From: an uncultured Poribacteria bacterium
GTDB taxonomy: Bacteria > Poribacteria > WGA-4E > WGA-3G
Assembly: GCA_951828515.1 (NCBI GenBank)
Contig: OX639992.1
Span: forward strand, 1,706,561-1,770,560
Direction: 5' to 3'
DNA length: 64,000 nt
In this document: positions 6,623 to 61,044 of the stretch, in pieces
Layout of the letters: the number at the start of each line of letters is the position of its first letter
How positions within the stretch are numbered: the stretch's first letter is position 1
The notes under the pieces: generated by a model
Seen by the model: the letters and a program-made list of their open reading frames with translations, nothing else
What the model was told of the DNA's origin: nothing
Database searches by the model: none
Translations under genes and position numbers: made by a program

Positions 6623-6880
6623 ATGGAGTTGACCATCAAACTAACAACCGAACAAATTATTGATTTTATCCAACAACTGCCAGGGGAAGAGAAGTTAACG
6701 GTGGTCCGCGCCCTCGCGAAAGAATCTCTGCCTCGCCGCGCCGAACGGATGAAGTATCTTGAATCAAAGGTTCGAGAGGTATGCACCGAACGCGGGTTGG
6801 ATTGGGATACTATGACAGATGAAGAACGCCAGGATTTCATCAATGATGTTGTCCATGAGGACCGTGAATGCGGCCAATAG
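6623..6880 (+). CDS. Putative antitoxin of a PIN-type toxin-antitoxin pair
   Basis: An 85-aa ORF preceded by GGAGGA. It overlaps the downstream PIN gene by 13 nt and has a charged C-terminal half. Confidence 0.6.
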   Translation: MELTIKLTTEQIIDFIQQLPGEEKLTVVRALAKESLPRRAERMKYLESKVREVCTERGLDWDTMTDEERQDFINDVVHEDRECGQ

Positions 6881-7275
6881 TTGTTTACGATACAAATGTT
6901 CTCATATCAGGTATGATTTGGGGAGGAACTCCTTACGACTGCATCGCACTTGCGCAAGAAAATAAAGTTAAAGGGGTAACTTGCTCTGAAATACTGGATG
7001 AATTCTCGGAGAAGTTAACGAATAAGTTTAACGCTTCTCCCTCAAGAACCGCGGAAATAGTAGCTGAACTCCTCAATTTTCACCAAGTAGTCAAAATTAC
7101 CAACCACCTTAAGAATGTTACCGCCGATCCGGATGACGATAAGATAATAGAATGTGCCGTTATCGGAGGAGCCACCCACATTGTTACTGGGGACAAAAAG
7201 CATCTCCTACCCCTTCGGAGTTATCAAGGTATTCTTATCGTAAAAGCCGCGGATCTGCTTGCGCAATTCCAATGA
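6868..7275 (+). CDS. PIN-domain toxin (TIGR00305/COG1569-like)
   Basis: VVYDTNVLISG at the N-terminus, DPDDDKIIECA, and HIVTGDKKHLL near the C-terminus. These are the acidic residues characteristic of the PIN family. Confidence 0.8.
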   Translation: MRPIVVYDTNVLISGMIWGGTPYDCIALAQENKVKGVTCSEILDEFSEKLTNKFNASPSRTAEIVAELLNFHQVVKITNHLKNVTADPDDDKIIECAVIGGATHIVTGDKKHLLPLRSYQGILIVKAADLLAQFQ

Positions 7276-7293
7276 AAATCAATTAAAAAACCT

Positions 7294-7563
7294 ATGCCCA
7301 CTTACCGAAAAAAACTCATTGAGGTCAACATACCCCTCCAAGCCATTAACATAGAATCGGCAAAAGACGCTTCACTCACACATGGACACCCCTCAACCCT
7401 ACACCGCTATTGGGCACGCCGTCCGCTCGCCGCATGCCGCGCTGTCATCTTCGCCAGTATGGTAGACGACCCCTCCGAATGCCAAGACGAATTCCCGACT
7501 GAACCCGAACAGAACGCCGAACGCATTCGACTCCACAACCTCATGAAACGACTCGTGATATAG
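7294..7563 (+). pseudogene. DUF1156 DNA methyltransferase, N-terminal 89-codon stub only
   Basis: KKLIEVNIPL..IN.ES...ASLTHGHPSTLHRYWARRPLAACRAVIFASMVDDP is the characteristic DUF1156 N-terminus. The ORF stops after ...MKRLVI and about 590 nt of non-coding DNA follow. Family members are normally many hundreds of residues longer. Confidence 0.7.
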
Positions 7564-26441: not shown

Positions 26442-26503
26442 AGTAAACTTGGCAACAAGCAGGCATTGTGGCACTGCCGCTATGACAGAGAATATTTATT
26501 CAG

Positions 26504-27274
26504 TTACATTTTCAACTTGCCCCACGTTGTGGCAAGTTTATCCTTGGGCGATACAGCAAAATAAACGCCGTTTTCCATATCTTGGTTAATCTCGTCAACG
26601 GTGAGGGCGCGGTCATAGATGGCGACTTCATCAACCAAGCCAATCATACCGGGCAATCCCGTTTGTGCCTTACCGATACGGAAGACGACTTCAATGCTGT
26701 TAATTTCACCCTTCGGTGGTGCGAATTCAACATCTAATTTGCCGTCAATATATTGGCGAATCATATCACCATCGTAGGTAGAAGAAACGTGGTGCCACTG
26801 CTCCAAATCGGGTTTAATTGTCTGTTTATTCCGTGAACCTTTCCACCCACCGATGTTAATCCACGTCTCAATTTGCGGGGAACCCGTAAACTGAGCACTC
26901 CACTGAAGGCAATAGCCGCCAACGTTTGCAGAGCTTCTGCGTCCCATCAAGTTAGAGTCACCTTGGGATTCCTCAGGGAAAAACCATGCCTGAATCGTGA
27001 TCTCATCCGTAATGTCGAGTTCAGGAACTGCGTCAACCTCTACAAACTGTTCGGAAGCTTCAAGATGCACAGCACCGCCAATTTTACCGTCTTTCGACCA
27101 TACGGCACCTTCAAGGGTACCTTCGATGTTATTGCCACTTACATCTTTCACCTTGCCACCATCGTCTTCATCGAAAGTGAAATACAACATGAGCGCCTTG
27201 TCATCGTTTATTGCCCACGCATCGACACTAAGACTTAGTGCAATGAGGCAAAAAACTGTGATAATAGTTTTCAT
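26504..27274 (-). CDS. Secreted LamG/concanavalin-A-like domain protein with C-terminal TTWGKLK tail
   Basis: Signal peptide (MKTIITVFCLIALSLSVDAWA). LamG pattern (FTFDEDDGGKVKDVSGNN, ITIQAWFFP, WHHVSSTYDG, GLVDEVAIYDRALTVDEI). The tail is KLATTWGKLKM. Confidence 0.8.
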   Translation of the reverse strand: MKTIITVFCLIALSLSVDAWAINDDKALMLYFTFDEDDGGKVKDVSGNNIEGTLEGAVWSKDGKIGGAVHLEASEQFVEVDAVPELDITDEITIQAWFFPEESQGDSNLMGRRSSANVGGYCLQWSAQFTGSPQIETWINIGGWKGSRNKQTIKPDLEQWHHVSSTYDGDMIRQYIDGKLDVEFAPPKGEINSIEVVFRIGKAQTGLPGMIGLVDEVAIYDRALTVDEINQDMENGVYFAVSPKDKLATTWGKLKM

Positions 27275-43113: not shown

Positions 43114-44736
43114 ATGAAGTTGTACAACAAACCCACCAACTGCGTCATGGTGGGTATTTATGTTTTATTCATAGGTGTCCTTTGTCGTCCTGTGGCGGCT
43201 TACATAGAAGGACCTTGGCTATGGATGATTGCCAGTGGTGAGAAAGTGGATGAAGACCAGCTTGCTGTGGCAAGCAGAGGAAAATTTACGGAAAACCTTG
43301 TTGCTGAATACGGTGTAAATGAAGGTGATGCCGCAGGACTGTTGCGATGGACGCGCGGCCGAATACGCCCTACAGTCGATTGCTTGTTCCGGGACTGGCT
43401 TTGCAATTCCAATAACGTCAACGATGTCATCAATAAAATAGGGTTAAGCACAGACAGTGGAATAAATTACCATGCAGCGTACGCTTTGATTAACATCGTC
43501 TCACCACGCGACCGAAAAAACGTCGCAATGGGTGTAGGTAGCGATGATGCAGTTAAAGTTTGGCTCAACGGAGAAATCGTACATGTGAATAACGTCAATA
43601 GGGGCACTACAGGTATTCAAGACCTGTTTCGCGTCGATCTAAAAACTGGCAGTAATCTCCTACTTGTTAAGGTAACGGATAGATTTGGGCATTGGGGCAT
43701 GTTCTTCGAGATCTATCTTGACAAGGCAAATTTCACCACTGAACTTCCTACCGGAACCCCTGGAATTTCTCTCGCTACGCAAATGTATGAAAAATATAGT
43801 GCAATCCTTCAACAACCGGAAATCCGAGAACGAGTGCCGGCTGTCCTGGGACACCTGCAGAGGCCCGAAATACAAGCACTGTTAACGCCTGTTACGATAG
43901 ATGCTGTTGTTAAAAATCCGGATCTTCTTGGAACATTCGGCGTAGATGATGAAGTGATCCAATTCCTTAAAGCACATCCGAGTATCAGAATCATGTTCAG
44001 CGATCCCGACTTTCAAACGCTGCTGCAAAATCCAGAGGCTCTTTCAGAATTCGCCGGGCTCATTACAGAGGATTCCCATGTGAAAATACCCAAACGCCAG
44101 CGACAACAACCCGGAGATGTTGACGGCAATGGGGTCGTAGATATACAGGACCTTGTATCTATCGCCTCGCGTTTCGGTCAAAAAGGACAGAATCCCGCGG
44201 ATGTCAACGGCGACAAGACGGTTGATATTCGGGACCTTGTTTTGGCTGCCGCCTTAATGACAGCCGGAAGAGCCGCACCTTCTGCTTACGCTGCCATAGG
44301 AACGAACCCCGATAATTTACCGCTACAGCCTGAGGACATCGAACTTTGGCTGACTCAAGCCCAACGACTTGATTTGAGCAAGCCAATGCTACAAAGAGGG
44401 GTCCACGTGCTCGCGCATCTCATGGAGATGCTAACGCCAAAAAGGACACACCTCTTGCCTAATTATCCGAACCCCTTCAATCCAGAGACATGGATCCCCT
44501 ATCAACTCGCCGAAGCAGCAGATGTTACGCTCACCATCTACGCCGCAGATGGACGCTTGATTCGGACCCTGGCGTTGGGGCATCAGTCTACAGGGATATA
44601 TCAGAGCAAAAGCCGAGCGGCGTATTGGGATGGGCGGAATGCGTTGGGTGAGCCTGTCGCAAGTGGCATCTATTTCTATACGCTCAGGGTTTCCGGAGAA
44701 TTCACTGCTACACGGAAGATGTTGATTCGGAAATAA
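43114..44736 (+). CDS. Secreted protein with jelly-roll-like N-domain, dockerin-type repeats and FlgD-Ig/T9SS-type C-terminal sorting domain
   Basis: Signal/TM (VMVGIYVLFIGVLCRPVAA). Two dockerin-like Ca-binding repeats (GDVDGNGVVDIQDLV, ADVNGDKTVDIRDLV). C-terminus: NYPNPFNPETWIPYQL...ASGIYFYTLRVSGEFTATRKMLIRK. Confidence 0.75.
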   Translation: MKLYNKPTNCVMVGIYVLFIGVLCRPVAAYIEGPWLWMIASGEKVDEDQLAVASRGKFTENLVAEYGVNEGDAAGLLRWTRGRIRPTVDCLFRDWLCNSNNVNDVINKIGLSTDSGINYHAAYALINIVSPRDRKNVAMGVGSDDAVKVWLNGEIVHVNNVNRGTTGIQDLFRVDLKTGSNLLLVKVTDRFGHWGMFFEIYLDKANFTTELPTGTPGISLATQMYEKYSAILQQPEIRERVPAVLGHLQRPEIQALLTPVTIDAVVKNPDLLGTFGVDDEVIQFLKAHPSIRIMFSDPDFQTLLQNPEALSEFAGLITEDSHVKIPKRQRQQPGDVDGNGVVDIQDLVSIASRFGQKGQNPADVNGDKTVDIRDLVLAAALMTAGRAAPSAYAAIGTNPDNLPLQPEDIELWLTQAQRLDLSKPMLQRGVHVLAHLMEMLTPKRTHLLPNYPNPFNPETWIPYQLAEAADVTLTIYAADGRLIRTLALGHQSTGIYQSKSRAAYWDGRNALGEPVASGIYFYTLRVSGEFTATRKMLIRK

Positions 44737-47349: not shown

Positions 47350-48411
47350 TTACTTTTCATCTCCCTGTTTCTTGAGTTCTCCCCAGCGTCTCGGAAGTTT
47401 GCCTTTTGGGTTCACCGCCAGAAAGCCGGTGTCGTACGCCTCAACGATCGGTGAAAATATTCCGTTGTCTAACCAACCCCCCAAGAGATAGATGGTGCCA
47501 TTCACAACAACCGCCGTTGTTGCTTTTGGGATTGTTATGGGTGGCGCTTTGTGCCATTTGTTGACTGTTGGATTATAAATATCTACAGCATCAATGCGTC
47601 TAGACCAATTGTTCCGATCATAACCGCCTATTGTCCAAATCTCATTACCGACGACAACGGTTTCAAACCAACATTTTGGCATGGGTATATCAGGACGTTT
47701 ACGCCACGTGTTGATTTTAGGATTATACTCCTCAATAGCATCAACAAGGCGATCACCAAGGGGTCCCGCGAACGAAACTTCACCACCGAGAACATAAACT
47801 TTACCGTCTACAACTTCAGCCTTCGCCCATCCCCGTTCTGTCGGCATATTCGCTCGCTTCTCCCATCTATCGGTCAAAGGATCGTAAACCTCAACAAGAC
47901 CTATAGCCTCGCGTTTACCGAGTTTATTGTTGTGAATACTCCCACCAATGATGTATATCTCTCCGTCAACGACCGCGGTGACGAAACCCTTACGGCGCGT
48001 TGGCATATTCCGCTTCTTGACCCACGTATCGGTGCGTGTGTCATACATCTCAACGGTTTTTGTGTATTCGCCGCGCATCTCCTCTCTACCCCCAAACACA
48101 TAGATGTCGGTGGAAAAAACGGCAGCTCTGGCAGAAATCCGCGCTGTCGGCATACTTGCGGCTTTCTGCCATGTGTCCGTCCGCGTGTCGTAGACATCTA
48201 CCGTTGAAAGTGCAGGGGCACCACCCCCTAAATTTTCATGGTGATCGAAACCACCGGTCAGGTAAATTTTACCATTCACAGCCGCGGCTGCCATGCCCCT
48301 TCTCCATGTTGGCAGTTCGGATATCTGTTCCCAACCCCCAGCAAAACTGTTAGAGACACCAACGAGGAAAAGGATAATAAGCCATTGCAAATACCTGTAT
48401 TTTGCGAACAT
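47350..48411 (-). CDS. Secreted Kelch-repeat beta-propeller protein with divergent RRWGELK tail
   Basis: Signal peptide (LQWLIILFLVGVSNSFAGG). There are six or so repeats of the form ...G(K/E)IY..GG......V(E/D)VYD..TD.W...A.MP..R. The C-terminus is VNPKGKLPRRWGELKKQGDEK. Confidence 0.8.
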   Translation of the reverse strand: MFAKYRYLQWLIILFLVGVSNSFAGGWEQISELPTWRRGMAAAAVNGKIYLTGGFDHHENLGGGAPALSTVDVYDTRTDTWQKAASMPTARISARAAVFSTDIYVFGGREEMRGEYTKTVEMYDTRTDTWVKKRNMPTRRKGFVTAVVDGEIYIIGGSIHNNKLGKREAIGLVEVYDPLTDRWEKRANMPTERGWAKAEVVDGKVYVLGGEVSFAGPLGDRLVDAIEEYNPKINTWRKRPDIPMPKCWFETVVVGNEIWTIGGYDRNNWSRRIDAVDIYNPTVNKWHKAPPITIPKATTAVVVNGTIYLLGGWLDNGIFSPIVEAYDTGFLAVNPKGKLPRRWGELKKQGDEK

Positions 48412-49396: not shown

Positions 49397-50266
49397 TTAA
49401 AGAGCCCACCGATTTGGACCAGGACCGGGTTGATGTTCATCGCGAACACGCTTAAATTCCTCAGGCGTGGTAACAACATTTTCAGGGTGCAACCGACTCC
49501 GCGCGAGAAAGCCTGCTTCGGGTTGATAGCCGGTCGGTTTTGACGCGTCTTGATAGCGGGAATCAACACTCCATCGGACTTGATGACTGACATTGGGAAT
49601 AGAACGGTGCGGGGTCAGATTGGTCAGTAGAAAAATGCTGCCAAACTTGACGGGGACCACTACGGGTTCGACTTCAGGCAATTCATCCGGTGGTATCTCA
49701 AGATAGAAACGTTCCGGAACGCTCTGATGCCGGAAAACGCCGTCTCGATGGACGTGCGGGATGACCTCCAAACACCCGTTCTCAACCGTAGCATCTATCA
49801 GCGGAATCCAGACTGTGAGTTGCAAAACAGAGTCGCATTTAGGCTCCATATAGCCAGCGTCTTGATGCCAAGGGACAAGGGTCCGGTCGTGTTCAGGAAG
49901 CTTCGGACGCACCCTATAGGCTGGGTGACACATAATATCCGGTCCGACGAGCGACTCAGCGATGTCAAGCAGTTTTGGGTTGATGAGCAGGTCGAAGAGT
50001 GCCGGTCCCGTGTGTGCCCCGCTGAACACCTTCTGGAACACGACAGGGGATTGCGCCGTAATTTTTGCCAAACGGGTATCAAACCCTTCCGTTTTAAATT
50101 CAGAGTCAATTTCACCTCCGGCGTAGAGTTCTGAGGCACCAGCATCAACAATTTCCTCAAACTCCGCGATAAGTGGGTTCAGATCGTCCGGTGCAAGTGC
50201 ATCTTCGATTAACAGATAGCCGTTCTCATTAAAATCGTGGATTTGCGAATCCGTTAATGTCTTCAT
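49397..50266 (-). CDS. Phytanoyl-CoA dioxygenase (PhyH) family protein
   Basis: MKTLTDSQIHDFNENGYLLIEDAL, WHQDAGY (H-x-D) and TPHRS. The ATG at 50266 is preferred because upstream codons lie in repeat copy 9. Confidence 0.8.
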   Translation of the reverse strand: MKTLTDSQIHDFNENGYLLIEDALAPDDLNPLIAEFEEIVDAGASELYAGGEIDSEFKTEGFDTRLAKITAQSPVVFQKVFSGAHTGPALFDLLINPKLLDIAESLVGPDIMCHPAYRVRPKLPEHDRTLVPWHQDAGYMEPKCDSVLQLTVWIPLIDATVENGCLEVIPHVHRDGVFRHQSVPERFYLEIPPDELPEVEPVVVPVKFGSIFLLTNLTPHRSIPNVSHQVRWSVDSRYQDASKPTGYQPEAGFLARSRLHPENVVTTPEEFKRVRDEHQPGPGPNRWAL

Positions 50267-50274
50267 TTTTTTAG

Positions 50275-50354
50275 TGGCTGTCGGCTGTCGGCTTCCAGCC
50301 ATCCGTGAAAGAGGTGTTGGGGTAACCGAAAACCTTTTCACTGACTGCTGACCG
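50275..50354. repeat. Heptad-arm palindromic intergenic element (copy 9)
   Basis: GGCTGTCGGCTGTCGGC...GTGAAAGAGGTG...ACCTTTTCACTGACTGCTGACCGC. Confidence 0.75.
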
Positions 50355-50829: not shown

Positions 50830-52662
50830 CTAACCTCCTGTCAGAACGAAGATTGCCTCTCGAAATTGACCGAGTGGACGCGTATCATAGGTAATGTCTA
50901 CTGGAACGACAATTCTCTTTCCTGAAGCGTCAAGGTGCCTTGGAATCGGGACGGAAAAATCGATGTGACCATCTGATCGCGCTGAAATCGTTGTTTCTGC
51001 GGGAGCAAGCTCCATATTCCATGCGTTCGGAAGAATCGGTTGGGCGATTGCCGTGCGTGGTTCAGATGAATGATTCGTTATCTCCACACGTAACTGTGCC
51101 GTTTCACCAAATGCGACCTCCTGCTCATAAGGATAACAGCGGACCCAATGTTCGTCCATGCCGTAGTTCGCGTGGTCCCAAGGAAAGAGTTCAGTATAGC
51201 ACTCTTCACGTTCGGCAAGTATGTCCAGCATACACTGCATCTCGGCATCAGTAAAATCAAAGGCTGGATCGACATGGCAATTAAAGATATGCGTCGGTTC
51301 AAGTTGCTGAATACGCCGCAGGCACTTTTCGTAACCGGCATCCTTGCCGAGCAAATTTCGATTACCGGAACAATAGTCGTCTATCCCTGCCATCGTGAAG
51401 GAGTCACCTGCGAAGAACATCCGAACACCGCGTCCCTCAACGAGCAGTCCACCGTGATAGTAGGTCTGTCCCGGAAAATGGTATGCCGTCATTGTGAACT
51501 CATTCCACTGCCAAGAATCTCCATCACGGGTAATGCGATCCACTCGGGTGACCGAAGGCGAAATACAGGGGAGCCTGAAACCGATTGGGTTTGTGATGAC
51601 TCGCGCGACAACCGAATCCGTTATCGTTTCACAAGGGAAAGTCGCTTGAAATTCAGGGATAGCATCAACATGGTCATCGTGGTAGTGTGTCACCCAAAAT
51701 TGCGTGACCTCCGAAATTTCGCTATTTGCTTGTAACTGCTGGATCTGTTTGATAACATTCGGTGAGCCACAATCCATAACGAACGCTTCACCGTTTTCGG
51801 AGATAACCATCCATGTTGTGCCGAAATGGCGTAGGAATTCGGGTGGCGGTTTGCCCTCCCGGATAGGCATGTGTCCAGGACTTCCCTCAAATTCAGCAAA
51901 AAGTTTCGGAAAGTAGTGCCGGAGGGCTGAGATTGCGACATATTTATCGTAACAGCGTGTCAACCTCTGCTGAAGCGAGTCAATCGCCCTGTTTGGATCG
52001 TTCATAACAACACCATGCGTAGGAACAAGCGTCGTCGCTGATGTCTGGCGGATCTTCTCAAGGCTCTCAGTTAGTTCGTCGCGTGCCCCGAGAAACCCGT
52101 GGTAATCACTCGTCTGTTGTCCTTTTTGTAAACTGTAGAGGTCCCACAACTGACCCTCATCATAAATGAGATCACCAGAGAAGGCAAAACGTTCACCACC
52201 AACATCAACGAGATAGGTGACACTCCCATCGGTATGCCCTGGTGTTTCAAGAACCGTCAACGATGCCGGACCCCACTCAAACCGTACACCTTCGGTATAC
52301 GTATCCATCACAGAGATAGCATTGGCGAGCATGAGATTGTGGGGGTGGTAATTATAGAGGTGCCATCGATATTGTGGATCGTTCCAAAAGGTCTCGACCT
52401 CGCTAAACCACGCCGCCTCTTTCGCTGGAACGCCGACGCGAACATTATCAGGTATTGGAAAGCCCGCTGTGCTATCGCGGTGATGATGTGTGAACAGAAT
52501 TTGTTCAATGTCGGTGATGCCGAGTTCCGAGAGTGTAGCGCAGAAAGTAGTCCCACTCGGATCAATAAGAAGTGCCCGGTCACCATCACTGAGGATACCT
52601 GTGTTGACATGCCCATGATGAACATATAGGTGATGGCTGAGTTGAGAAAAGCGGGTCTGCAT
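50830..52662 (-). CDS. Double metallo-beta-lactamase-fold hydrolase
   Basis: Two MBL modules: the first has FTHHHRDS, the second has the canonical HxHxDH (WVTHYHDDHVD); 610 aa. Confidence 0.75.
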   Translation of the reverse strand: MQTRFSQLSHHLYVHHGHVNTGILSDGDRALLIDPSGTTFCATLSELGITDIEQILFTHHHRDSTAGFPIPDNVRVGVPAKEAAWFSEVETFWNDPQYRWHLYNYHPHNLMLANAISVMDTYTEGVRFEWGPASLTVLETPGHTDGSVTYLVDVGGERFAFSGDLIYDEGQLWDLYSLQKGQQTSDYHGFLGARDELTESLEKIRQTSATTLVPTHGVVMNDPNRAIDSLQQRLTRCYDKYVAISALRHYFPKLFAEFEGSPGHMPIREGKPPPEFLRHFGTTWMVISENGEAFVMDCGSPNVIKQIQQLQANSEISEVTQFWVTHYHDDHVDAIPEFQATFPCETITDSVVARVITNPIGFRLPCISPSVTRVDRITRDGDSWQWNEFTMTAYHFPGQTYYHGGLLVEGRGVRMFFAGDSFTMAGIDDYCSGNRNLLGKDAGYEKCLRRIQQLEPTHIFNCHVDPAFDFTDAEMQCMLDILAEREECYTELFPWDHANYGMDEHWVRCYPYEQEVAFGETAQLRVEITNHSSEPRTAIAQPILPNAWNMELAPAETTISARSDGHIDFSVPIPRHLDASGKRIVVPVDITYDTRPLGQFREAIFVLTGG

Positions 52663-52692
52663 TGGGTATCCTTGTTTACGGAGAACAGAATC

Positions 52693-53100
52693 TCATACAA
52701 AAACTGCAGGTGAGACCTGAAACCTTTCTGCTAAAGTCCGAATGTGTGTGACCGTCAGATCCCGCTCACCGTTAAGGATTTCCAAAACGAAGTCAGGCGG
52801 ACCAAGCTCCGGTAAATCTATCGGTTTAATCTGGTGTTCTTCCACCAACAACTTAAGTACCTCAACGCCATTACATTCGGGAATTGGATGATGTTTCTCC
52901 TCATAAGCATGTATGACTGTACCCAGTATATCAAGGAGTTCATAGAGAGGGTGTTGTTCGTCGGTGCCCACTTCATCAATCAAAGCATTTAAGGTTGTAA
53001 TGGCTTTATCGTATTCGTTCTCATCACGAATTGAAAAGAGAGGTTGAATAATGCGCCAATGTGTCTGAATATCCTTTGCGATAACGCTCATGTTTTCCAT
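52693..53100 (-). CDS. higA: HigA-type HTH antitoxin (COG5499-like)
   Basis: IRDENEYDKAITTLNALIDEVG.DEQHPLYELLD.LGT.I..YE and a C-terminal HTH (LTVTHIRTLAERFQVSPAVF). Its start overlaps the reconstructed higB stop. Confidence 0.75.
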   Translation of the reverse strand: MENMSVIAKDIQTHWRIIQPLFSIRDENEYDKAITTLNALIDEVGTDEQHPLYELLDILGTVIHAYEEKHHPIPECNGVEVLKLLVEEHQIKPIDLPELGPPDFVLEILNGERDLTVTHIRTLAERFQVSPAVFV

Positions 53101-53489
53101 CCTCCTGTGTCATATTCTGCATGCGTCAATACACGACGAACATATCCTTTCCCACGATTAAAGTGAATAGAAGTCATCAGTCGATATTTGTTACCGCCGA
53201 TATTATAGTAAAGCCCGCAATTACTTATACATCGACAGAGAGGCGAGGTTAGAAACCTCGCCAGCGAAACGGTGGGACCTGTTTACCAAAATGTAAACTT
53301 ATTTTTAGAAACTACTATAAAAACGGTTAAACCATCCACAAGATCTGCGCTTGGAAACACTGCGCGCAATTCGGTAAAACTTCCGAACGAATTCTTTGTC
53401 ATGAGCTTAAACCAACGCATAAGCGACGTTTGACTATTAGGATATTGTTTCCAGAACTCGCGCAGTGCTCTTTTGCTAATAATGTGCAT
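53088..53489 (-). pseudogene. higB: HigB-type mRNA-interferase toxin (pfam09907-like) split by a 112-bp insertion
   Basis: The N-part (MHIISKRALREFWKQYPNSQTSLMRWFKLM...FPSADLVDGLTVF, 53489-53319) and the C-part (NIGGNKYRLMTSIHFNRGKGYVRRVLTHAEYDTGGWKT*, 53204-53088) are in the same frame once 53206-53317 plus one TA are removed. That gives a 95-aa protein. Confidence 0.8.
53206..53317. mobile_element. MITE-like 112-bp insertion with TA target duplication
   Basis: Flanked by TA (53204-05) and TA (53318-19). Short terminal inverted repeat (TAGTAAAGC... / ...GAAACTACTA). It carries the hairpin GGCGAGGTTAGAAACCTCGCC, whose 25-nt block also occurs at 855-879. There is no coding capacity. Confidence 0.7.
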
Positions 53490-53503: not shown

Positions 53504-54892
53504 CTATGCCTCAGCAAACTGCGGTCTGCCGAGGGCATCTGTTCTGCCTTGACGTTTGTAGTGCGGGAGATGCCCGCCTGCATCTGCCAAAATACGTTCT
53601 TGTGCAAGCGCAATTCGGTCAGCCCCTTTGTCAGCGATGTCATGCTGGCAGGCGACATCTGCCTCAAGGTCAAACAGCCGTATATCATCCTTAAAATCGA
53701 CACTGGAAAAATACCAACTCCTTGCATCTTTATACCAAACGGAGTTGACATACCGACAGGTCAAGTAGTCACGCGATGTCCAATCGCTTTTCCCTTCAAC
53801 GAGCGGAAGCAAACTCTGCCCCTGAATCTCACCCGCAGGTTCAACTTGGCTGGCTGCCATAACGGTAGCAGGCACATCAAGCGTATAGACGAATTCGTCA
53901 CACGTTGTGCCAGCATTTACACCAGACGGGTGGCTAACCATCATAGGGATGTCCATTGTGCCCGGGTACATAAAGTTCGCCGGTTTGCCGGTGGCTTTGT
54001 CTGGGTTCTCTGCGAAGTTCGTGCCGTGGTCTGCGAGGAAAACAATAAGTGTGTTTTCACGCAATCCGAGCCGATCAATGGTATCCACCAACCTTCCAAA
54101 CCATGTATCTACGAGTGTTACCAAGCCAGCGTAATTGGCTTTAACGCTCGGCAACCGTTCTTCAAGTTCCGCATCATTGAGTGAACCGTAGGGGAGGTTG
54201 AGACAGATAGGTTCGCGGTCTTCACGTTTACCGTAGAGATCGTAATAGTGGATAGGTGCCTCCCATGTTTCGTGAGGTGTGAACCCATCAACGTAGAGGT
54301 AAAACGGCGTATTCTGATGATTGTGTTCAACGAATTCAATTGCGGATCGGAACAACCGTGCGGCGGGCCACATCTCCTCTGGACGTTCAGGTTGGACGTT
54401 CACAATATGGGCACGGATACGTTCGGGGTTTCCTCGATAACGGGAAATCAGTGAAGGATCGGCGTGCGCACCACCCCGGTACCTATCTTCGGCTTGACCT
54501 CTGACGAATTCCCATTGTCGGAACCCACGCGTGAAATTCATGCCCGGCACGAAATAATGCGGCACATCGGCAAAGAAACCGGTATGATACCCATTTTGGA
54601 CAAGCGATTCAGCGATCGCGGGTTCATCAGAAGACATTGGCTGCCAACCGGGGGTATAAACGTTGTCCCATGGCACAGGGGTATAAGTGCTGAACGGATA
54701 GGCGCGTCTACCGGTATGTAAAGTACGGCGCGTCGGGATTGTCGGTAAGCATTCCGGATGCGCGTTCGTAAATCTGACGCTCTGTTCGGCAAACCGTGCT
54801 AAATTCGGGGTCTGAACCCAATCGTTGCCATAAGGACTAAGATATGCGGTTCGCAGTGTATCTGAAACAACGACGACTATGTTCCAACTCAT
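53504..54892 (-). CDS. Sulfatase-like alkaline-phosphatase-superfamily hydrolase (Thr at the formylglycine position)
   Basis: VVVSDTLR metal-ligand context, TPNLARFA, and a signature region (ECLPTIPTRRTLHTGR) with T-x-P-x-R in place of C/S-x-P-x-R. Confidence 0.75.
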   Translation of the reverse strand: MSWNIVVVVSDTLRTAYLSPYGNDWVQTPNLARFAEQSVRFTNAHPECLPTIPTRRTLHTGRRAYPFSTYTPVPWDNVYTPGWQPMSSDEPAIAESLVQNGYHTGFFADVPHYFVPGMNFTRGFRQWEFVRGQAEDRYRGGAHADPSLISRYRGNPERIRAHIVNVQPERPEEMWPAARLFRSAIEFVEHNHQNTPFYLYVDGFTPHETWEAPIHYYDLYGKREDREPICLNLPYGSLNDAELEERLPSVKANYAGLVTLVDTWFGRLVDTIDRLGLRENTLIVFLADHGTNFAENPDKATGKPANFMYPGTMDIPMMVSHPSGVNAGTTCDEFVYTLDVPATVMAASQVEPAGEIQGQSLLPLVEGKSDWTSRDYLTCRYVNSVWYKDARSWYFSSVDFKDDIRLFDLEADVACQHDIADKGADRIALAQERILADAGGHLPHYKRQGRTDALGRPQFAEA

Positions 54893-55482: not shown

Positions 55483-56073
55483 ATGAAACTGGTTTATGTT
55501 TGTATCGCGGCACTCTGTATTGCGACCGCATTAACTGTCTTCGCTGCTGATCCAGTGGTCGTCACAGAAATAAAGGATAACAAGGGCGGGATTTATAAAG
55601 CCGTCGAGTTGGAAGAGGGTGGGAAATTTTTCCACGATAGGGACTATACGATTACAACTATTCCGAAAGATTTTCTTGGACTAACGCAAGTCTCCACGTC
55701 AGCAGACTGTCCTGGCGGACAAGACTACCGACTCACGTTTGAAATCGACCGGCCGGCTTATATCTACCAAGCATGGGATAGCCGACATACACCTCCAGAA
55801 GACCGTGGACAGGATCCGAAAGGCTGGTTTACAAAGGGATATACGGATACTGAAGAAATCCTCATGTTGGATGCCCCACACGCTCCAACCGAATATCATA
55901 TCTACAAATCCAATGAACCGCATCCGAAAGGAGTCGTGGAATTGCTCGGTATTGATGAGGTTATTGGGGACCCGGTCCTCATGTGGACGATCTTCCTCGA
56001 AGAAGGTGTGCTTCCCGTTGACCCGGCTGGGAGTCTAACGACAACATGGGGTGAAATCAAATCCGATCGGTAG
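55483..56073 (+). CDS. Secreted protein of unknown function with C-terminal TTWGEIK tail
   Basis: The ATG at 55483 gives a signal peptide (MKLVYVCIAALCIATALTVFA). The C-terminus is VDPAGSLTTTWGEIKSDR. Confidence 0.65.
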   Translation: MKLVYVCIAALCIATALTVFAADPVVVTEIKDNKGGIYKAVELEEGGKFFHDRDYTITTIPKDFLGLTQVSTSADCPGGQDYRLTFEIDRPAYIYQAWDSRHTPPEDRGQDPKGWFTKGYTDTEEILMLDAPHAPTEYHIYKSNEPHPKGVVELLGIDEVIGDPVLMWTIFLEEGVLPVDPAGSLTTTWGEIKSDR

Positions 56074-56102
56074 CGTTATCATTCAAACCGAACTCAACTA
56101 CA

Positions 56103-56130
56103 AGCGGGCTGATAAGCCCGCTTTCTTTTT
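56103..56130 (+). terminator. Rho-independent terminator
   Basis: An 8-bp perfect stem AGCGGGCT/AGCCCGCT with loop GATA, followed by TTCTTTTT. Confidence 0.8.
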
Positions 56131-56159: not shown

Positions 56160-56522
56160 TTAATAGATAATACACGCGCCACCCGCACAAGCACTTCCTG
56201 CTTTCTGCGTCACATCACCAGCAACATTTTCAGCCTCGCCTGCCTCAAACTCGGCAACTATTGACATCGTTTCCTCTGCTGGCTCGGATATACTGAACTG
56301 GAGGGTGTCGCTCTGTGTGAAAGTTACCGTGCATCCTGTCATCTGGAAAAGAGCGATCGCGATGCAGAAGAGAATGCAAATGGCTGTCAGTTTTCGGCTC
56401 TCGGGAACCTTTAGGAAAGAGATTTTCTGGTGAAGTGATACTTCCTTGCTGATAGCTGACTGCTGATCGCGACGCGAGCCGCGTGTAGGCTCGCGGGACA
56501 ATGCTACAAAAATGTGTTTCAT
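56160..56522 (-). CDS. Possible small lipoprotein; start codon doubtful
   Basis: Lipobox-like (AIALFQMTGC) after a hydrophobic stretch. The first ~45 codons are encoded by a heptad-arm repeat copy (56382-56469) and no canonical start lies between the repeat and the hydrophobic segment. Confidence 0.35.
   Translation of the reverse strand: MKHIFVALSREPTRGSRRDQQSAISKEVSLHQKISFLKVPESRKLTAICILFCIAIALFQMTGCTVTFTQSDTLQFSISEPAEETMSIVAEFEAGEAENVAGDVTQKAGSACAGGACIIY
56382..56469. repeat. Heptad-arm palindromic element (copy 11)
   Basis: GGCTGTCAGTTTTCGGC ... CCTTTAGGAAAGAG ... TTTCTGGTGAA ... CTTCCTTGCTGATAGCTGACTGCTGATCG. Confidence 0.65.
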
Positions 56523-56524
56523 TA

Positions 56525-57649
56525 TTAAATCTCAACTCTCTGAAGATCGGCTTGGTCCAGCGTATTTGTACCTAAACCGACTGAACTCGCTGTGTTGATA
56601 TGGTTTGCCAACTTAGACACATTACCTAACTCCATCTCCTCGCGCTTCTGGTTGATGGTCTGAAGGACAAGAACATCAAGGATAACCGGATCTGTACTGA
56701 TAAAAAGACTGCCATATTTCCACGTACTTTCGGCGTGATATATCGGTCCTCGGTCGAAGGATGCCACCAACCCATCAACAATATTGAGCGTAAGTTTATC
56801 TTTCAGGACCTTATGCTCCATAATCTCAGCGATAGCCGGATTGCAATAGATCGGTTTTCCATGGAATCGGCGTGTGTTATCAACACTACCAAACGCGAGA
56901 TTCTTTAAGCATCCACTGATCCCCGCCATTTCATGATGTTTCAAAACAGGAACATTAATCAACACATCAACATGTTCCGTAACGATTCGGGAATACCGAG
57001 AGCGAGTACTTTCGTTTTCTCGGCGGTTAACACTGTCTTTTCCGCTTTCGTAAAACACTTCGTCATCATACCCGATACCCTCTGTGTCAGAGGCAATAGT
57101 CTGCACTTCGCCTTCATCTTGTTTGATAGGGTATCCAGCGTTCAAGAGATGGCTCTCAAACCGATCCCAGATAATAATTTGTTTTTTGAGAACACCTGCG
57201 CCGTATAGCCCTTCAACGATCTTATCAACAATGATAGGATGTGTGCTGAGCTCGGGTCCACCAAGTGGGTTAATTTTTATGCCGACGATATCATCAGGCA
57301 GGACAATATCTCGCCACGCCTCTTTAGCGGAGGCACGTCCAGTGAACTTCATCATCGCCTGATCAATCAGTTCACTGACAGCATCTTCATCGAGCCGATC
57401 ACCATCCCAAACGTTTTCACTGACAGCCTCGACGACAGACGTAAGGGGTGTTGTTGTGGTGGTATCGGGCTGTAACTGCCCGCTACTCAACTGTGCGAAC
57501 GCCGGAAGCGCACTCAGCGCGCCCCCGATCCCGCCAACACCAGTAGCAAGTCGGGTTAAGAATTGTCGGCGGTCAAGTGCATCTCGGTGCTCTGCAGCTT
57601 CCTGGCTGTCGGCAATAATGTCTTCTATAACGGTGTCGTAAGGTTTCAT
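56525..57649 (-). CDS. DUF362-domain protein with twin-arginine signal
   Basis: Tat motif (DRRQFLTRLATGVGGIGGALSALPAFAQ). DUF362-like core (IVGIKINPLGG...IIIWDR...GISGCLKNLAFGS). Confidence 0.7.
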   Translation of the reverse strand: MKPYDTVIEDIIADSQEAAEHRDALDRRQFLTRLATGVGGIGGALSALPAFAQLSSGQLQPDTTTTTPLTSVVEAVSENVWDGDRLDEDAVSELIDQAMMKFTGRASAKEAWRDIVLPDDIVGIKINPLGGPELSTHPIIVDKIVEGLYGAGVLKKQIIIWDRFESHLLNAGYPIKQDEGEVQTIASDTEGIGYDDEVFYESGKDSVNRRENESTRSRYSRIVTEHVDVLINVPVLKHHEMAGISGCLKNLAFGSVDNTRRFHGKPIYCNPAIAEIMEHKVLKDKLTLNIVDGLVASFDRGPIYHAESTWKYGSLFISTDPVILDVLVLQTINQKREEMELGNVSKLANHINTASSVGLGTNTLDQADLQRVEI

Positions 57650-58755
57650 CAGAGTTTACCTAATTCCGTGAGAATCTGTGCTGTCGGCACACGTACCGCC
57701 ACCCCGTCAATGGATTTCCAAGCGATTGTTCCATCCTTGCGAAGCACATAGGATGCCGGACGTGCTATCCTATCGTTACCAGGATCCAAAACATTGTAAG
57801 CCTTGATGACCTCTCTGTCCTTATCAGCGAGGACAGGGAATTCAAGTCCACTACCTTGGACTGTTTTTTTAGTATCACCTTCATCATCGGAACTGATAGC
57901 GATGAGTTCCGCACCTGCCGCCCGAATTTTAGCATAGTTTTTTTGCAACTCTCCGAGTTGTCCCCTGCAGAACGGTCACCAGCCGCCGCGGTAAAACACA
58001 ACCACTGCGTTCTTGTTGCCGACATAATCAGCGAGTGCGTGCAACTTACCATCACCATCCGGTAACTCAAAGGCGGGTGCTTGACTTCCGGTGCTCAAGC
58101 CTCGACCCGGATCCAGTTTCTCTTGTCCAGGCAAGCGGGTGAGTTGAACCTGTAGCTCCAATGTCTCTGCCTCAGGTATCGGATGCACTGCCACTTCCCT
58201 ATCTTCGTAACCCGTATGTGCGATTGCTAAGGTTAAAGCTTGCTCCACAGGAAGGTTTTCAAAGGTGAAAACACCTGCCCCTGTTGTCAGTGCTTCGTAA
58301 ACTTTGCCTGCTTTATCAGTAAGCTGGAGGTTGACTTCACCGAGCGGTTCACCCGTCGCTTTATCCGTTAAGACACCACGTAAATGTGAGACAGGGGTCT
58401 CCAATGCTATAAGTGCCACCTTATCCAGCGAAACAACTTGCCCAGAGGTAACAGTGACACTCACTTCCTTGGTTTTATAGCCCTTCGCTGATATTTGAAG
58501 TGTGTAGTTTCCAGCCTCGATTGATGGGAGTTCGTAAGTCGCCTGTATCTCAGTTTGTGCTAAGAGTTGCCCATCTCTTAGTAAACGCACCTGAACTAAT
58601 ACACCGTCAATAGATTGCACCTCTCCACGCAGTGTGCCTGTTAATGTCTCAACTGCGGAGGTATCTACCGTTTCCTCAAGGGGATTCTCTGTTCCGCAAT
58701 TTAATCCTGCGAACAGCAAGAGTGCGAACGCGAGAAATGTCTGCATCTGTTTCAT
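57649..58755 (-). CDS. Secreted carboxypeptidase-regulatory-like repeat + AhpC/TSA (peroxiredoxin-like) fusion with in-frame TGA (candidate selenocysteine) at 57976-57978
   Basis: ORFs 57976-58755 and 57649-57948 are in one frame. Reading through the TGA gives VVVFYRGGW-[TGA]-PFCRGQLGELQKNYAKIRAAGAELIAISSDD, the W-C-P-x-C redox motif with TGA at the first Cys. There is a signal peptide at the N-terminus. Confidence 0.7.
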
Positions 58756-58764
58756 GATTTTTTC

Positions 58765-59571
58765 CTATTTGTTTAACTGTTGTTTAATTCTGCCCCACGT
58801 TGTTGCCAATTTGTCCACAGGGTCAACTGCCGCGGCGGTTTCAACGCCGTTGTCCATGAGAAATTTCATATCCTCTTCTTCCAAGGCAACATCGAAGAGG
58901 GCAACATCGTCGATGATGCCTGCAGTATATCGGTCATAGTGCCGCCCAATATGAAATACACCTTCACCCGTGCCGTATCCGTCTTTTTCATTGAAATCAG
59001 TCTCGGCTTCCATTTCGCCATCTATCCATATCGAAGCCTTACCAGTACCTGCGTCGGCTCTACCAACGACAAAGTGCCATTTGTCGTCTCCAATTTCGGT
59101 TCTGCCATCTGCTCGGAAACTTGTTGATGCACTGTCGCGCAGGTAGAGAGTCACCTTGTTATCGCCACCTCCGTTCCAGAGTAGATACCACGGGAGCGCC
59201 TGTGATGTATCCTCGTAGTTTTTGCCAACAAGCGCACCGGCGACCCTGGTGCCTTTGAAATGGCAGATGATCGTGAAGGAGACACCCGCCTTAAATCCGA
59301 CAGTGTCTGAGTGCGGAACTTCAACCCAGTTGCTGGCACCGTCAAATTCAAGTGCTTTTCCAAATTTCCCATCGACCCATTTCGCGCCGTGGATTTCACC
59401 GTCGTTTCCATGCTCTGACGAATCCGTAGCAACATTGCCCTTTCCTTCGTCAAAGAGCCACATTCCTGTAATATTCTCGGGGTCAATCTTCGCAAAACTG
59501 GGTAGTGCTACCAGTAAAAAGACTACCATAAAACTCGCGAGCGATATTCGGACACCTTTAAACAAAGACAT
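58765..59571 (-). CDS. Secreted LamG/concanavalin-A-like domain protein with C-terminal TTWGRIK tail
   Basis: Signal peptide (ISLASFMVVFLLVALPSFA). LamG pattern (WLFDEGKGNVATDSSEHGNDGEIHG, FTIICHF, WHFVVGRADAG). The tail is DKLATTWGRIKQQLNK. Confidence 0.8.
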   Translation of the reverse strand: MSLFKGVRISLASFMVVFLLVALPSFAKIDPENITGMWLFDEGKGNVATDSSEHGNDGEIHGAKWVDGKFGKALEFDGASNWVEVPHSDTVGFKAGVSFTIICHFKGTRVAGALVGKNYEDTSQALPWYLLWNGGGDNKVTLYLRDSASTSFRADGRTEIGDDKWHFVVGRADAGTGKASIWIDGEMEAETDFNEKDGYGTGEGVFHIGRHYDRYTAGIIDDVALFDVALEEEDMKFLMDNGVETAAAVDPVDKLATTWGRIKQQLNK

Positions 59572-59819
59572 TACAATTCCTCCTTAAAATATCCGTCAGT
59601 TCACAACACAGATGAGCAATTTCTATGCCATACCTCTTTCCGCCTCAAGCGTGAGATTTCGCACGAAATGGGGCAATTCTCGTCTCAGCGTGCACAAAAA
59701 GGGGCAATTGCGAGTGGCTGAAATATCAAACACACGCTCCAATTCTTATAGTATACCATCCACAGTGGAGTTATGTCAAATCAAACGGATAGACTTATTT
59801 GGAAGCACGTGAGTTAGTT

Positions 59820-60065
59820 TTAAAACGACTTCGACTTGATTCGCCCCCATGTGGTGGTGAGAGAGGCACTATTCGGACTGATAGAAAGTGCGCCGCTGGT
59901 AGTAGCACCCTTTATCCCGATTAGAGTGTTACTATTTCCTGACGCATCTTGAAACCGGTCTGCACCTGCTGACTCATCAAAATTCCATAGAGCCAAGGTG
60001 TGTTCATCACTCTCAAAACGATGGGGTGGATCAAAGGGTTCAATGCCCGTGATTGACAAAGGCAT
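59820..60065 (-). CDS. LamG-family relic: N-terminal strand fused to the TTWGRIK tail (81 codons, no signal peptide)
   Basis: LALWNFDESAGADRFQDASGNSNTLIG matches the start of the LamG domains above and then runs directly into SLTTTWGRIKSKSF. Confidence 0.45.
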   Translation of the reverse strand: MPLSITGIEPFDPPHRFESDEHTLALWNFDESAGADRFQDASGNSNTLIGIKGATTSGALSISPNSASLTTTWGRIKSKSF

Positions 60066-60195: not shown

Positions 60196-61044
60196 TTGCT
60201 GCTGAATGGATCGGTTAACGCAGCGTTCGAGAACATTGAACTCATGGCGGGTCCCGCAGGGATGGGTGGCGCGTACTCGGCGGCGACCCAGGATACCAGT
60301 GCCCTGATATGGAACCCTGCAGGTTTGGCAGGATTACCTACACCTGAAATCGGCATCAGTTACATGGATCTATATGGCGTGTTGGGTTACAGTTTCGTGG
60401 GAGTGGCACACCCAATTCGGAGTGGACAAACTGTTGGCGCAGCAATTTTGAACTCAAGCGATATAGAAGGCATTTCTCAAGAACGGATTGTGCTGCTGTC
60501 TTCTGCAGTTCGTGTATGGAAGGGGTTTCACATCGGTATTAATGCGAAATATTTCAGCACTTCAGTCAATTTGGAACAGATGCCGTTAGGGCGCGGAACA
60601 GGATGGGGCACCGATCTCGGCATTCAGTACGCTCCCATAACAAATTGGATTAGAATCGGCATAGTATTCCCGAATCTGTTCTCCAACCTGTCTTATCATC
60701 GACTTGAAAAGACGACTTCCAAGAGTACCTACAACGAATCGCTTCTACGTGAATGGCGTATCGGTTCTGCTGTAAAAATCAACCTTGGTTCAGGAATACC
60801 AGATAGAAAATCGGATGCTCTGTTAGCGGCTTTTGAGGTTGCGAATGGTATTCCGCTTATCGGATGCGAGTACCGGAGCGACGTCCGATACGGTGAATTC
60901 GCGTTGCGGTTGGGATGGCGTTTCAACGATGGACTTACCGCTGGGTTCGGTTATCAGCGCGGCAATATCGGTTTAGACTACGCCTTTGTGAATGATAGAT
61001 ACGGCTCGCAGACCTCGCTATTTTCAGTCCGCCTGTTCTACTGA
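60196..61044 (+). CDS. PorV/PorQ-like outer-membrane beta-barrel protein; true start unclear
   Basis: AGPAGMGGAYSAATQDTSALIWNPAGLAGL is the conserved N-terminal motif of PorV/PorQ-type barrels. Alternating beta-strand pattern ends ...SLFSVRLFY. The frame is open upstream to 60115 and encodes a signal-peptide-like KLSAYLLLILILLLNGSVNA without an ATG/GTG. Confidence 0.65.
   Translation: MLLNGSVNAAFENIELMAGPAGMGGAYSAATQDTSALIWNPAGLAGLPTPEIGISYMDLYGVLGYSFVGVAHPIRSGQTVGAAILNSSDIEGISQERIVLLSSAVRVWKGFHIGINAKYFSTSVNLEQMPLGRGTGWGTDLGIQYAPITNWIRIGIVFPNLFSNLSYHRLEKTTSKSTYNESLLREWRIGSAVKINLGSGIPDRKSDALLAAFEVANGIPLIGCEYRSDVRYGEFALRLGWRFNDGLTAGFGYQRGNIGLDYAFVNDRYGSQTSLFSVRLFY

Follow-up and report, generated by a model that had tools for sequence, protein, structure and literature searches.

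A TGA-interrupted Prx-like gene of an uncultured Poribacteria bacterium as a probable selenoprotein gene with a short downstream hairpin

The interrupted gene and its protein domains

We analyzed a stretch of 64,000 nucleotides from an uncultured Poribacteria bacterium (contig OX639992.1, positions 1,706,561 to 1,770,560 of the forward strand; hereafter the window), and focus here on a gene on its minus strand in which a TGA codon interrupts a peroxiredoxin (Prx)-like domain and is probably read as selenocysteine (Sec). The minus strand from 58755 to 57649 forms one complete frame of 368 codons followed by a terminal stop, with the TGA at 57978-57976 (codon 260) as the sole internal stop. The mechanical list of open reading frames (ORFs) breaks this gene (57649..58755 (-)) in two. 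The first part is an ATG-started ORF of 259 aa at 57976-58755 (-), with the C-terminal end ...NAVVVFYRGGW directly before the TGA. After the TGA the frame reads PFCRGQLGELQKNYAKIRAAGAELIAISSDD... up to a TGA stop at 57651-57649, and the only downstream call of the ORF finder is a TTG-started piece of 99 aa (57649-57948), in frame with the 259-aa ORF, whose TTG sits 9 codons past the TGA. A preliminary description of the locus had reported both the ORF ending in TGA and its same-frame continuation into the TTG-started piece; all of its sequence statements proved correct. The terminal stop of the gene overlaps the ATG of the next gene (ATGA).

For comparison, 32 Poribacteria loci (L001-L032) were retrieved in a genome scan with one genome per GTDB species, several of them from closed chromosomes. 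Together with the window these form a set of 33 sequences, and with six Sec homologues from other phyla a set of 39; the frame is kept in all 32 Poribacteria genomes. In the TGA-containing sequences the base after the UGA is always a C, and a C directly after UGA is a weak termination context. Elsewhere TGA acts as an ordinary stop, since it terminates 12 of the 51 long ORFs in the window and also closes this very gene in 22 of the 33 sequences of the orthologue set (window included), which rules out an alternative genetic code with UGA as a sense codon. A search for other selenoprotein genes in the window gave 19 same-frame ORF pairs with a TGA between them, of which only the present gene looks split; among the rest, 6868-7563 and 50830-53109, for example, represent neighboring but distinct genes or frames that do not code.

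With a Cys placed at the internal stop, the Pfam AhpC-TSA model spans the TGA (residues 223-346, 57718..58089 (-); PF00578, 113 bits with a cutoff of 26, E = 9.7e-33; also PF08534, 1.2e-19), and the TGA thus lies inside a thioredoxin-fold, Prx-like domain. Two carboxypeptidase-regulatory-like beta-sandwich domains precede it, the first at residues ~41-117 (58405..58635 (-); PF13715, 3.4e-16, and PF13620 in two stretches), and the second at residues 125-206 (58138..58383 (-); the best PF13620 stretch, 6.6e-20). Pfam therefore bears out the N-terminal repeats behind a signal peptide that had been noticed earlier, as two domains within residues ~41-206. The signal peptide (58696..58755 (-)) ends in the lipobox-like sequence ...FAGLN-C20. 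Residues C20, G17, L13 and L14 are invariant in an alignment of 30 sequences, and among the lipobox variants (LNC, FGC, LSC, FSC, and LGC) the Cys is always retained. Because Cys20 is invariant at the end of the signal peptide, it is probably the site of a lipid anchor, and the protein is probably a lipoprotein.

In most Poribacteria orthologues the two beta-sandwich domains separate the redox domain from the anchor; the divergent orthologues L030-L032 have shorter N-terminal regions. The Sec forms from Acidobacteriota carry a signal peptide, in one case with a canonical lipobox, without beta-sandwich domains, and the two Sec forms from Chloroflexota have no signal peptide. Among the sequences compared, the beta-sandwich fusion is therefore specific to Poribacteria and export is not, because the Acidobacteriota forms have signal peptides without the beta-sandwiches. 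The earlier remark that an exported Sec enzyme would be less usual does not hold up against these homologues, and exported bacterial selenoproteins also appear in passages of the published literature.

The 5' end of the gene varies in a further respect. At L005, L006, L008, L009, L011, L015, L019, L022, L023 and L029, one to three tandem copies of the unit (R)AVQLANRKLAIQ directly precede the signal-peptide core in the extended upstream frame, where they lie either 5' of the orthologous gene or inside its N-terminal part; the window has none. The unit looks like a short repeated DNA element inserted at this end of the gene.

The UGA (57976..57978 (-)) occupies the first position of a U-P-F-C redox motif (57967-57978). 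Among solved structures, the nearest are a BCP peroxiredoxin from Aeropyrum pernix (2cx3, E = 5.9e-16, the best overall) and ResA of Bacillus. In the alignments the Sec column matches the leading Cys of W-C-P-H-C in ResA and the Ser of F-S-P-V-C in BCP, whose own peroxidatic Cys falls opposite C263, the second Cys of the motif. In these alignments the motif is therefore of the thioredoxin type U-x-x-C, with the predicted Sec at the exposed nucleophilic first position, and not T-x-x-U. The preliminary description had placed the TGA at the catalytic Cys of a peroxiredoxin-like domain; this stands insofar as the codon corresponds to the first Cys of the CxxC motif, but it is not the peroxidatic Cys. 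The sequence also departs from the PxxxT/SxxC signature: F-Y-R-G-G-W-U-P-F-C compares with F-F-P-A-A-F-S-P-V-C in 2cx3, with Pro replaced by Arg, Ser by Sec, and the Cys kept. No NCBIfam model reached its cutoff, and the peroxiredoxin models all stayed far below theirs. The best score was that of ResA (62.7 bits, cutoff 170), followed by the SelL-related redox protein (47.8, cutoff 120), with PrxU (26, cutoff 270), TlpA (19, cutoff 230) and DsbE (16, cutoff 123) scoring lower.

Conservation of the TGA and the downstream hairpin

The TGA is found at the identical column in 32/32 of the Poribacteria species genomes retrieved, and in homologues from four Acidobacteriota, one Chloroflexia and one Anaerolineae. 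Against these 39 sequences with TGA, a Cys codon (TGC or TGT) occupies the same column in 40 further homologues, which come from many phyla. In sequence terms this is the classical Cys/Sec alternation, which had been proposed as something to look for in an alignment of homologues. Downstream of the TGA the frame is open for 108-109 codons in 33/33 sequences. Over the 105 codons after the TGA, the pairwise ratio of nonsynonymous to synonymous substitution rates (dN/dS) lies between 0.03 and 0.17 (median 0.10), with dS from 0.35 to >2. The low dN/dS and the open frame indicate that the part past the TGA is translated in this frame. Orthologues with a genuine stop and two separate genes, which would have spoken for a split, were not seen among the 32: all keep the TGA and the open downstream frame under purifying selection. 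The peptide PFCRGQLGE, encoded by the nine codons that separate the TGA from the TTG, is conserved as well.

The database entries mirror the two-ORF call. When the read-through protein was used as query, the best 120 matches showed 63-91% identity and were from Candidatus Poribacteria wherever named. Nearly all of them were 255-299 aa in length, covering 58-70% of the query, and 119/120 of these best protein clusters ended in ...RG[GVSAI]W. With the C-terminal domain as query, the best 120 matches were all fragments, and 118/120 were 99 aa. All database entries examined (P0001-P0240) are split at the TGA, the 99-aa piece having a spurious start 9 codons on. The ...RG.W ends and the 99-aa fragments across the best matches show that the split is systematic. 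In NCBI/JGI the C-terminal fragments are named "peroxiredoxin family protein", "peroxiredoxin" or "hypothetical protein", and the N-terminal pieces "carboxypeptidase regulatory-like domain-containing", "redoxin domain-containing" or "hypothetical protein". A database record identical to the exact 259-aa product was not found.

Downstream of the UGA lies a hairpin, (G)CAACUC-GGA-GAGUUG(C) (57945..57961 (-)), which is the candidate for a bacterial selenocysteine insertion sequence (SECIS). Its core, CAACUC-GGA-GAGUUG at 57960-57946, is present with the G-rich loop that had been described before. In the window the stem has 6 bp, with an A·C mismatch at the outer pair, and starts 15 nt past the UGA; in most orthologues a seventh pair extends it to 7 bp, starting 14 nt past the UGA. 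The 54 nt from the UGA onward align without gaps in all 39 TGA-containing sequences. The loop, GGN, begins 21 nt past the UGA with indels in 0/39 sequences, its first base (alignment column 25) is a G in 39/39, and loop plus closing pair read C-GGN-G in most. From these 39 sequences RNAalifold predicted the hairpin (columns 19-24/28-33) as the sole structure. Counting 7 pairs including the outer G-C, 97.6% of the cells are paired, and this drops to 15-55% when the 3' partners are shifted by 1-3 columns.

Covariation, proposed earlier as a check on the region past the TGA, was found together with frozen synonymous sites. Compensatory double changes occur at two pairs of the stem. In four Acidobacteriota an A-U pair is replaced by G-C, with CAA changed to CAG and UUG to CUG, both synonymously, and in one Chloroflexia sequence a C-G pair is replaced by G-C. 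Forty codon columns have an invariant, degenerate amino acid, and exactly four of these lack any synonymous change in the 33 distinct sequences. The four are the stem codons Gln CAA, Leu CUC, Glu GAG and Leu UUG (hypergeometric p ~1e-5). The Gly codon of the loop does vary (GGA 7, GGU 17, and GGC 7), and the other Leu codons of the gene use 2-4 different codons. At the same seven positions, Cys homologues (n = 40) pair at a mean of 2.9/7, against 6.8/7 for the Sec forms. By this comparison of sequences, the hairpin is shown to be under selection at the RNA level.

The published bacterial SECIS consensus has a loop of 3-9 nt, a stem of 4-16 bp and 16-37 nt between UGA and loop, with a G in the first two loop positions following the pattern N1-G-[G/U]-N-N2, and a folding energy of -7.5 kcal/mol or lower (PMC13188914). 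Three of these four constraints fit the present element, namely loop and stem size (3 nt and 6-7 bp), the loop-G pattern, and the spacing of 21 nt. The folding energy reaches -9.1 kcal/mol in most orthologues and -10.4 to -11.6 kcal/mol in the Acidobacteriota forms; the value for the window is taken up below.

A longer lower stem was considered and set aside. For the 33 Poribacteria sequences over 102 nt (57889-57990 (-)), RNAalifold proposed a long-range pairing that encloses the UGA, between the UGA region (GGUGA, UUCUGC) and GCGGAA...UCAUC ~60 nt downstream, but the variation in this helix consists of one-sided, G-U-compatible transitions throughout and lacks compensatory support.

The six Sec homologues from other phyla (L033, L034, L042 and L044 from Acidobacteriota, L036 from Chloroflexia, and L037 from Anaerolineae) have the hairpin at the same position as the Poribacteria. 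They share the peptide that encodes it, C-R-x-Q-L-[GAV]-[EQ]-L, with compensatory base changes. From the shared position and peptide, the Sec subfamily, SECIS included, seems either to go back to one origin or to have moved between phyla.

Decoding of UGA260 and the gene neighborhood

Taken together, these data point very strongly to SelB- and SECIS-dependent Sec insertion at UGA260, yielding a lipid-anchored, stalked, extracytoplasmic oxidoreductase of the U-x-x-C type with a selenenylsulfide to C263, and on the sequence evidence the two annotated ORFs are almost certainly one selenoprotein gene. Following the canonical mechanism, the hairpin downstream of UGA260 would act as a bacterial SECIS when the ribosome arrives, and SelB·GTP·Sec-tRNASec would bind it, so that Sec is inserted in place of termination. 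The predicted product is a preprotein of 368 aa with a signal peptide and a probable lipid anchor at Cys20. Its two beta-sandwich domains would form a probable stalk, and its C-terminal thioredoxin-fold, Prx-like domain would bear the redox center U260-P-F-C263. Catalysis would most likely cycle through a selenenylsulfide between U260 and C263. Outside the cytoplasm, the enzyme would then serve as a thiol:disulfide (selenol) oxidoreductase or as a hydroperoxide reductase. We infer Sec insertion, lipidation, cellular location and substrates alike from sequence and from what is known of related systems.

Several observations weigh against Sec insertion at this codon. The hairpin of the window itself, with its 6 bp, has a folding energy of -5.4 kcal/mol, weaker than the consensus cutoff of -7.5 kcal/mol. 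The local structure of lowest energy does not contain it, and folding gave z-scores of -0.64 and 0.06. No Rfam family matched, whether at the gathering threshold or with E values up to 10; this miss is expected, because the diversity of bacterial SECIS elements exceeds what a single family model can cover. Within the 64-kb window no tRNA-Sec was found (ARAGORN detected only a tRNA-Gln), and tblastn with SelA, SelB and SelD of E. coli had no hit with E < 1; Sec machinery was likewise not found in the flanking 3 kb of the related loci. For a genome of ~5-6 Mb, absence from the window and these flanks is uninformative. As for the hairpin, a Watson-Crick hairpin of at least 6 bp in a loose SECIS geometry follows 2.1% of the TGA triplets in the window, and 15% when G-U pairs are allowed. 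On the window sequence alone the hairpin is only mildly unusual, and the evidence that takes it beyond chance is comparative.

Published work places the Sec machinery in the lineage. COG1921 (SelA), COG3276 (SelB) and COG0709 (SelD) are listed for Candidatus Poribacteria WGA-3G and for Poribacteria bins 44 and 70 (Slaby et al., 2017, Table S4; PMC5649159), and WGA-3G is the genome of locus L018, which carries a TGA orthologue. Poribacteria are also among the phyla with Sec-containing group 4 [NiFeSe] hydrogenases (PMC13582414, 2026). This support is at the level of the lineage and not of the source genome.

Other explanations of the TGA fare poorly in comparison. UGA might be recoded as another amino acid, either Cys through a tRNA-ReC-like tRNA or Trp, by a SECIS/SelB-type mechanism or by near-cognate read-through. 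The invariant C after the UGA would leave termination weak and so favors such decoding. In some Sec-using lineages tRNA-ReC-type tRNAs do decode UGA with a downstream SECIS (PMC13582414). Nevertheless, the G-containing apical loop and its spacing are typical of SelB-dependent elements, the family is well known for its Sec/Cys alternation and UxxC motif (PMC1088965, PMC2398784), and SelA, SelB and SelD have been reported in Poribacteria genomes. For the insertion of Cys a plain TGC would do, leaving no reason for a TGA and a hairpin fixed across the phylum, and we regard this recoding as very unlikely.

Slightly less probable still is a genuine stop, with a beta-sandwich lipoprotein of 259 aa followed by a separately started 99-aa fragment or by a decaying pseudogene. 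This is how all public annotations treat the locus, and a TTG is indeed available 9 codons past the TGA. However, the split would cut a single thioredoxin-fold domain midway, right before the CxxC motif, and leave the protein-level conservation of PFCRGQLGE between TGA and TTG unaccounted for. The downstream dN/dS of 0.03-0.17, the Cys at this position in 40 homologues, and a TGA that is invariant in 39 sequences despite saturated dS likewise speak against it. An error of sequencing or assembly that turned TGC or TGT into TGA, a concern raised in the preliminary description, would need only one base difference but can be dismissed. The codon recurs in 32 Poribacteria genomes that were assembled independently of one another, several as closed chromosomes, and in 6 genomes from other phyla. 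It also recurs in protein clusters derived from metagenomes, which number in the hundreds, with 119/120 of the best clusters ending in ...RG.W.

The probable selenoprotein gene has conserved neighbors. In 32/32 loci the order is one or more Laminin_G_3 genes, the selenoprotein gene and a DUF362 gene. In the window the upstream neighbor (LamG gene, 58765..59571 (-)) encodes a secreted Laminin_G_3 (concanavalin-like) protein with the C-terminal sequence ...LATTWGRIK (PF13385, 1.4e-14). A homologue is present upstream in all 32 Poribacteria loci, in one or two copies and at one locus with only 29% identity. The downstream neighbor (56525..57649 (-)) encodes a DUF362 protein (PF04015, 3.3e-22) with a twin-arginine (Tat) signal (DRRQFLT; TIGR01409, 16.8 bits). 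Its gene lies 3' of the selenoprotein gene in 32/32 loci, immediately so in most, and it is the gene whose start overlaps the selenoprotein stop in the window. The DUF362 protein shows 71-94% amino-acid identity, more than the selenoprotein, and its mature part has only two Cys. No DUF362 homologues were found beside the non-Poribacteria homologues among the fetched loci. Next comes a small ORF with an ambiguous start codon (56160..56522 (-)), of which only the last ~60 aa are conserved and for which no family match was found. These C-terminal 60 aa are conserved in 30/32 loci, from a lipobox-like ...LFQMTGC to GSACAGGACIIY, ending in C-A-G-G-A-C-I-I-Y (Cys-x4-Cys).

A promoter-like site upstream of the LamG gene (59750..59779 (-); TTGACA-18-TATACT with a TG before it, 11/12 matches) is a candidate operon promoter. 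It is a consensus match, and promoter-like sites in total were not above the level of shuffled sequence. Between convergent gene ends, a scan of the plus strand detected a GC-rich hairpin of 9 bp with a T tail (56102..56123); acting on the minus strand, it could be the terminator of the cluster.

The cluster could conceivably form a hitherto undescribed, Poribacteria-specific, extracytoplasmic, selenium-dependent redox module, although we consider this doubtful. In that case the Sec lipoprotein would not be an antioxidant working by itself. The module would comprise the secreted, lectin-like LamG protein, the stalked Sec lipoprotein as its catalytic part, the Tat-exported DUF362 protein and the small Cys-pair lipoprotein, and its targets may be oxidants from the host at the cell surface or one particular substrate in the periplasm. 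Candidate partners of the Sec protein are the two-Cys DUF362 protein and the small CAGGAC protein. We infer the functional link between these neighbors from their gene order and sequence features.

Some further observations concern the surroundings of the gene. Four ORFs of the window (at 58765-58803(-), 59814-59855(-), 56041-56073(+) and 26480-26530(-)) share the motif (K)L[A/T]TTWG[R/K/E][I/L]K at their C-termini, with 0-6 residues after it. Its bearers are the LamG protein, two small proteins with no assigned function and ORF 26504-27274, and it could be a lineage-specific sorting signal. Near the motif bearers, ORF 60196-61044(+) has a weak match to the PorV/PorQ family of type IX secretion (NF033709, 61 bits, cutoff 90). 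The window also contains genes typical of sponge-symbiont Poribacteria (53504-54892(-), 47350-48411(-), 49397-50341(-), and 43114-44736(+)), encoding a sulfatase, a eukaryote-like six-bladed Kelch-repeat protein, a PhyH dioxygenase and a protein with dockerin, FlgD-Ig and CHU_C (type IX secretion) domains at its C-terminus.

Comparison with known systems

The family, the motif, the decoding mechanism and their frequency in marine bacteria are known already, and Prx-like UxxC proteins are, as stated in the preliminary description, among the commonest bacterial selenoproteins. The finding leaves concepts unchanged and will not surprise a specialist. Domain fusions of thioredoxin-fold selenoproteins have also been noted earlier (PMC2398784). 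New are the phylum, the architecture of a lipoprotein with two beta-sandwich domains, and the conserved gene cluster. A description of the Poribacteria selenoproteome was not found in the literature searched, where the sole Sec-related mention is that of the hydrogenases. Reading the two ORFs as one selenoprotein gene corrects a systematic annotation error in the public Poribacteria genomes and metagenomes examined. It would give a major phylum of sponge symbionts, whose selenoproteome is essentially undescribed, one further conserved selenoprotein, and would imply a need for selenium in these symbionts. With its stem of 6-7 bp and loop of 3 nt the SECIS is unusually minimal, and its constraint is visible at synonymous sites, making it a clean test case for SECIS prediction.

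As in the prototype of E. coli fdhF and the bSECISearch consensus, the candidate element is a stem-loop within the coding sequence right after the UGA, with a small loop of G then G, a C-G closing pair and a spacing of 21 nt. It differs from that consensus in being very short (6-7 bp with a 3-nt loop), bulge-free, and without a supported lower stem.

At the protein level, the ResA/TlpA/CcmG (DsbE) group shares the thioredoxin fold and the W-C-P-x-C site, with the Sec at the position of the nucleophilic first Cys. These proteins are membrane-tethered and extracytoplasmic, a placement that we consider probable here too. The score of 62.7 bits against a cutoff of 170 indicates that the protein is not a member of the ResA family, and it further differs from the group in having no adjacent cytochrome c maturation genes, Sec in place of Cys, and a beta-sandwich stalk in place of a transmembrane anchor. 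In common with BCP/PrxQ, it has retained, at C263, the Cys that aligns with the peroxidatic residue, and one Arg falls no more than one position away from the conserved Arg of Prx proteins. It is distinct from PrxU (TxxU), in which Sec replaces the peroxidatic Cys itself, whereas here the predicted Sec lies three residues earlier. The SelL-related redox proteins (NF040769) resemble it in combining a Prx-like thioredoxin fold with Sec in a CxxC-type motif, but the match to this model scored 47.8 bits with a cutoff of 120. SelL itself is a UxxU protein of aquatic eukaryotes (PMC2398784).

By its domain, motif and Cys/Sec alternation, rather than by alignment with the reference WP_010940744.1, the gene belongs to the known "Prx-like, UxxC" selenoprotein family. 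This family, known from the analyses of Kryukov, Zhang and Gladyshev, is abundant in marine metagenomes (PMC1088965, PMC2398784) and has been described as "Prx-like 1, pfam00578, UxxC", with 225 selenoprotein sequences in the Global Ocean Sampling data (PMC2398784), and as "Prx-like thiol:disulfide oxidoreductase, PF00578, UxxC", predicted with high confidence (PMC13188914). The Poribacteria protein shares with it an AhpC/TSA-type domain (PF00578) that is distant from the true peroxiredoxins, the thioredoxin-like motif UxxC and not TxxU, the alternation of Sec and Cys, and a SECIS, here predicted, directly downstream of the UGA. It stands apart from the family in that a lipoprotein-type signal peptide and two beta-sandwich domains precede the redox domain, the Sec form is the only one in the Poribacteria genomes retrieved, and the gene lies in a conserved cluster with LamG, DUF362 (Tat) and small Cys-pair proteins.

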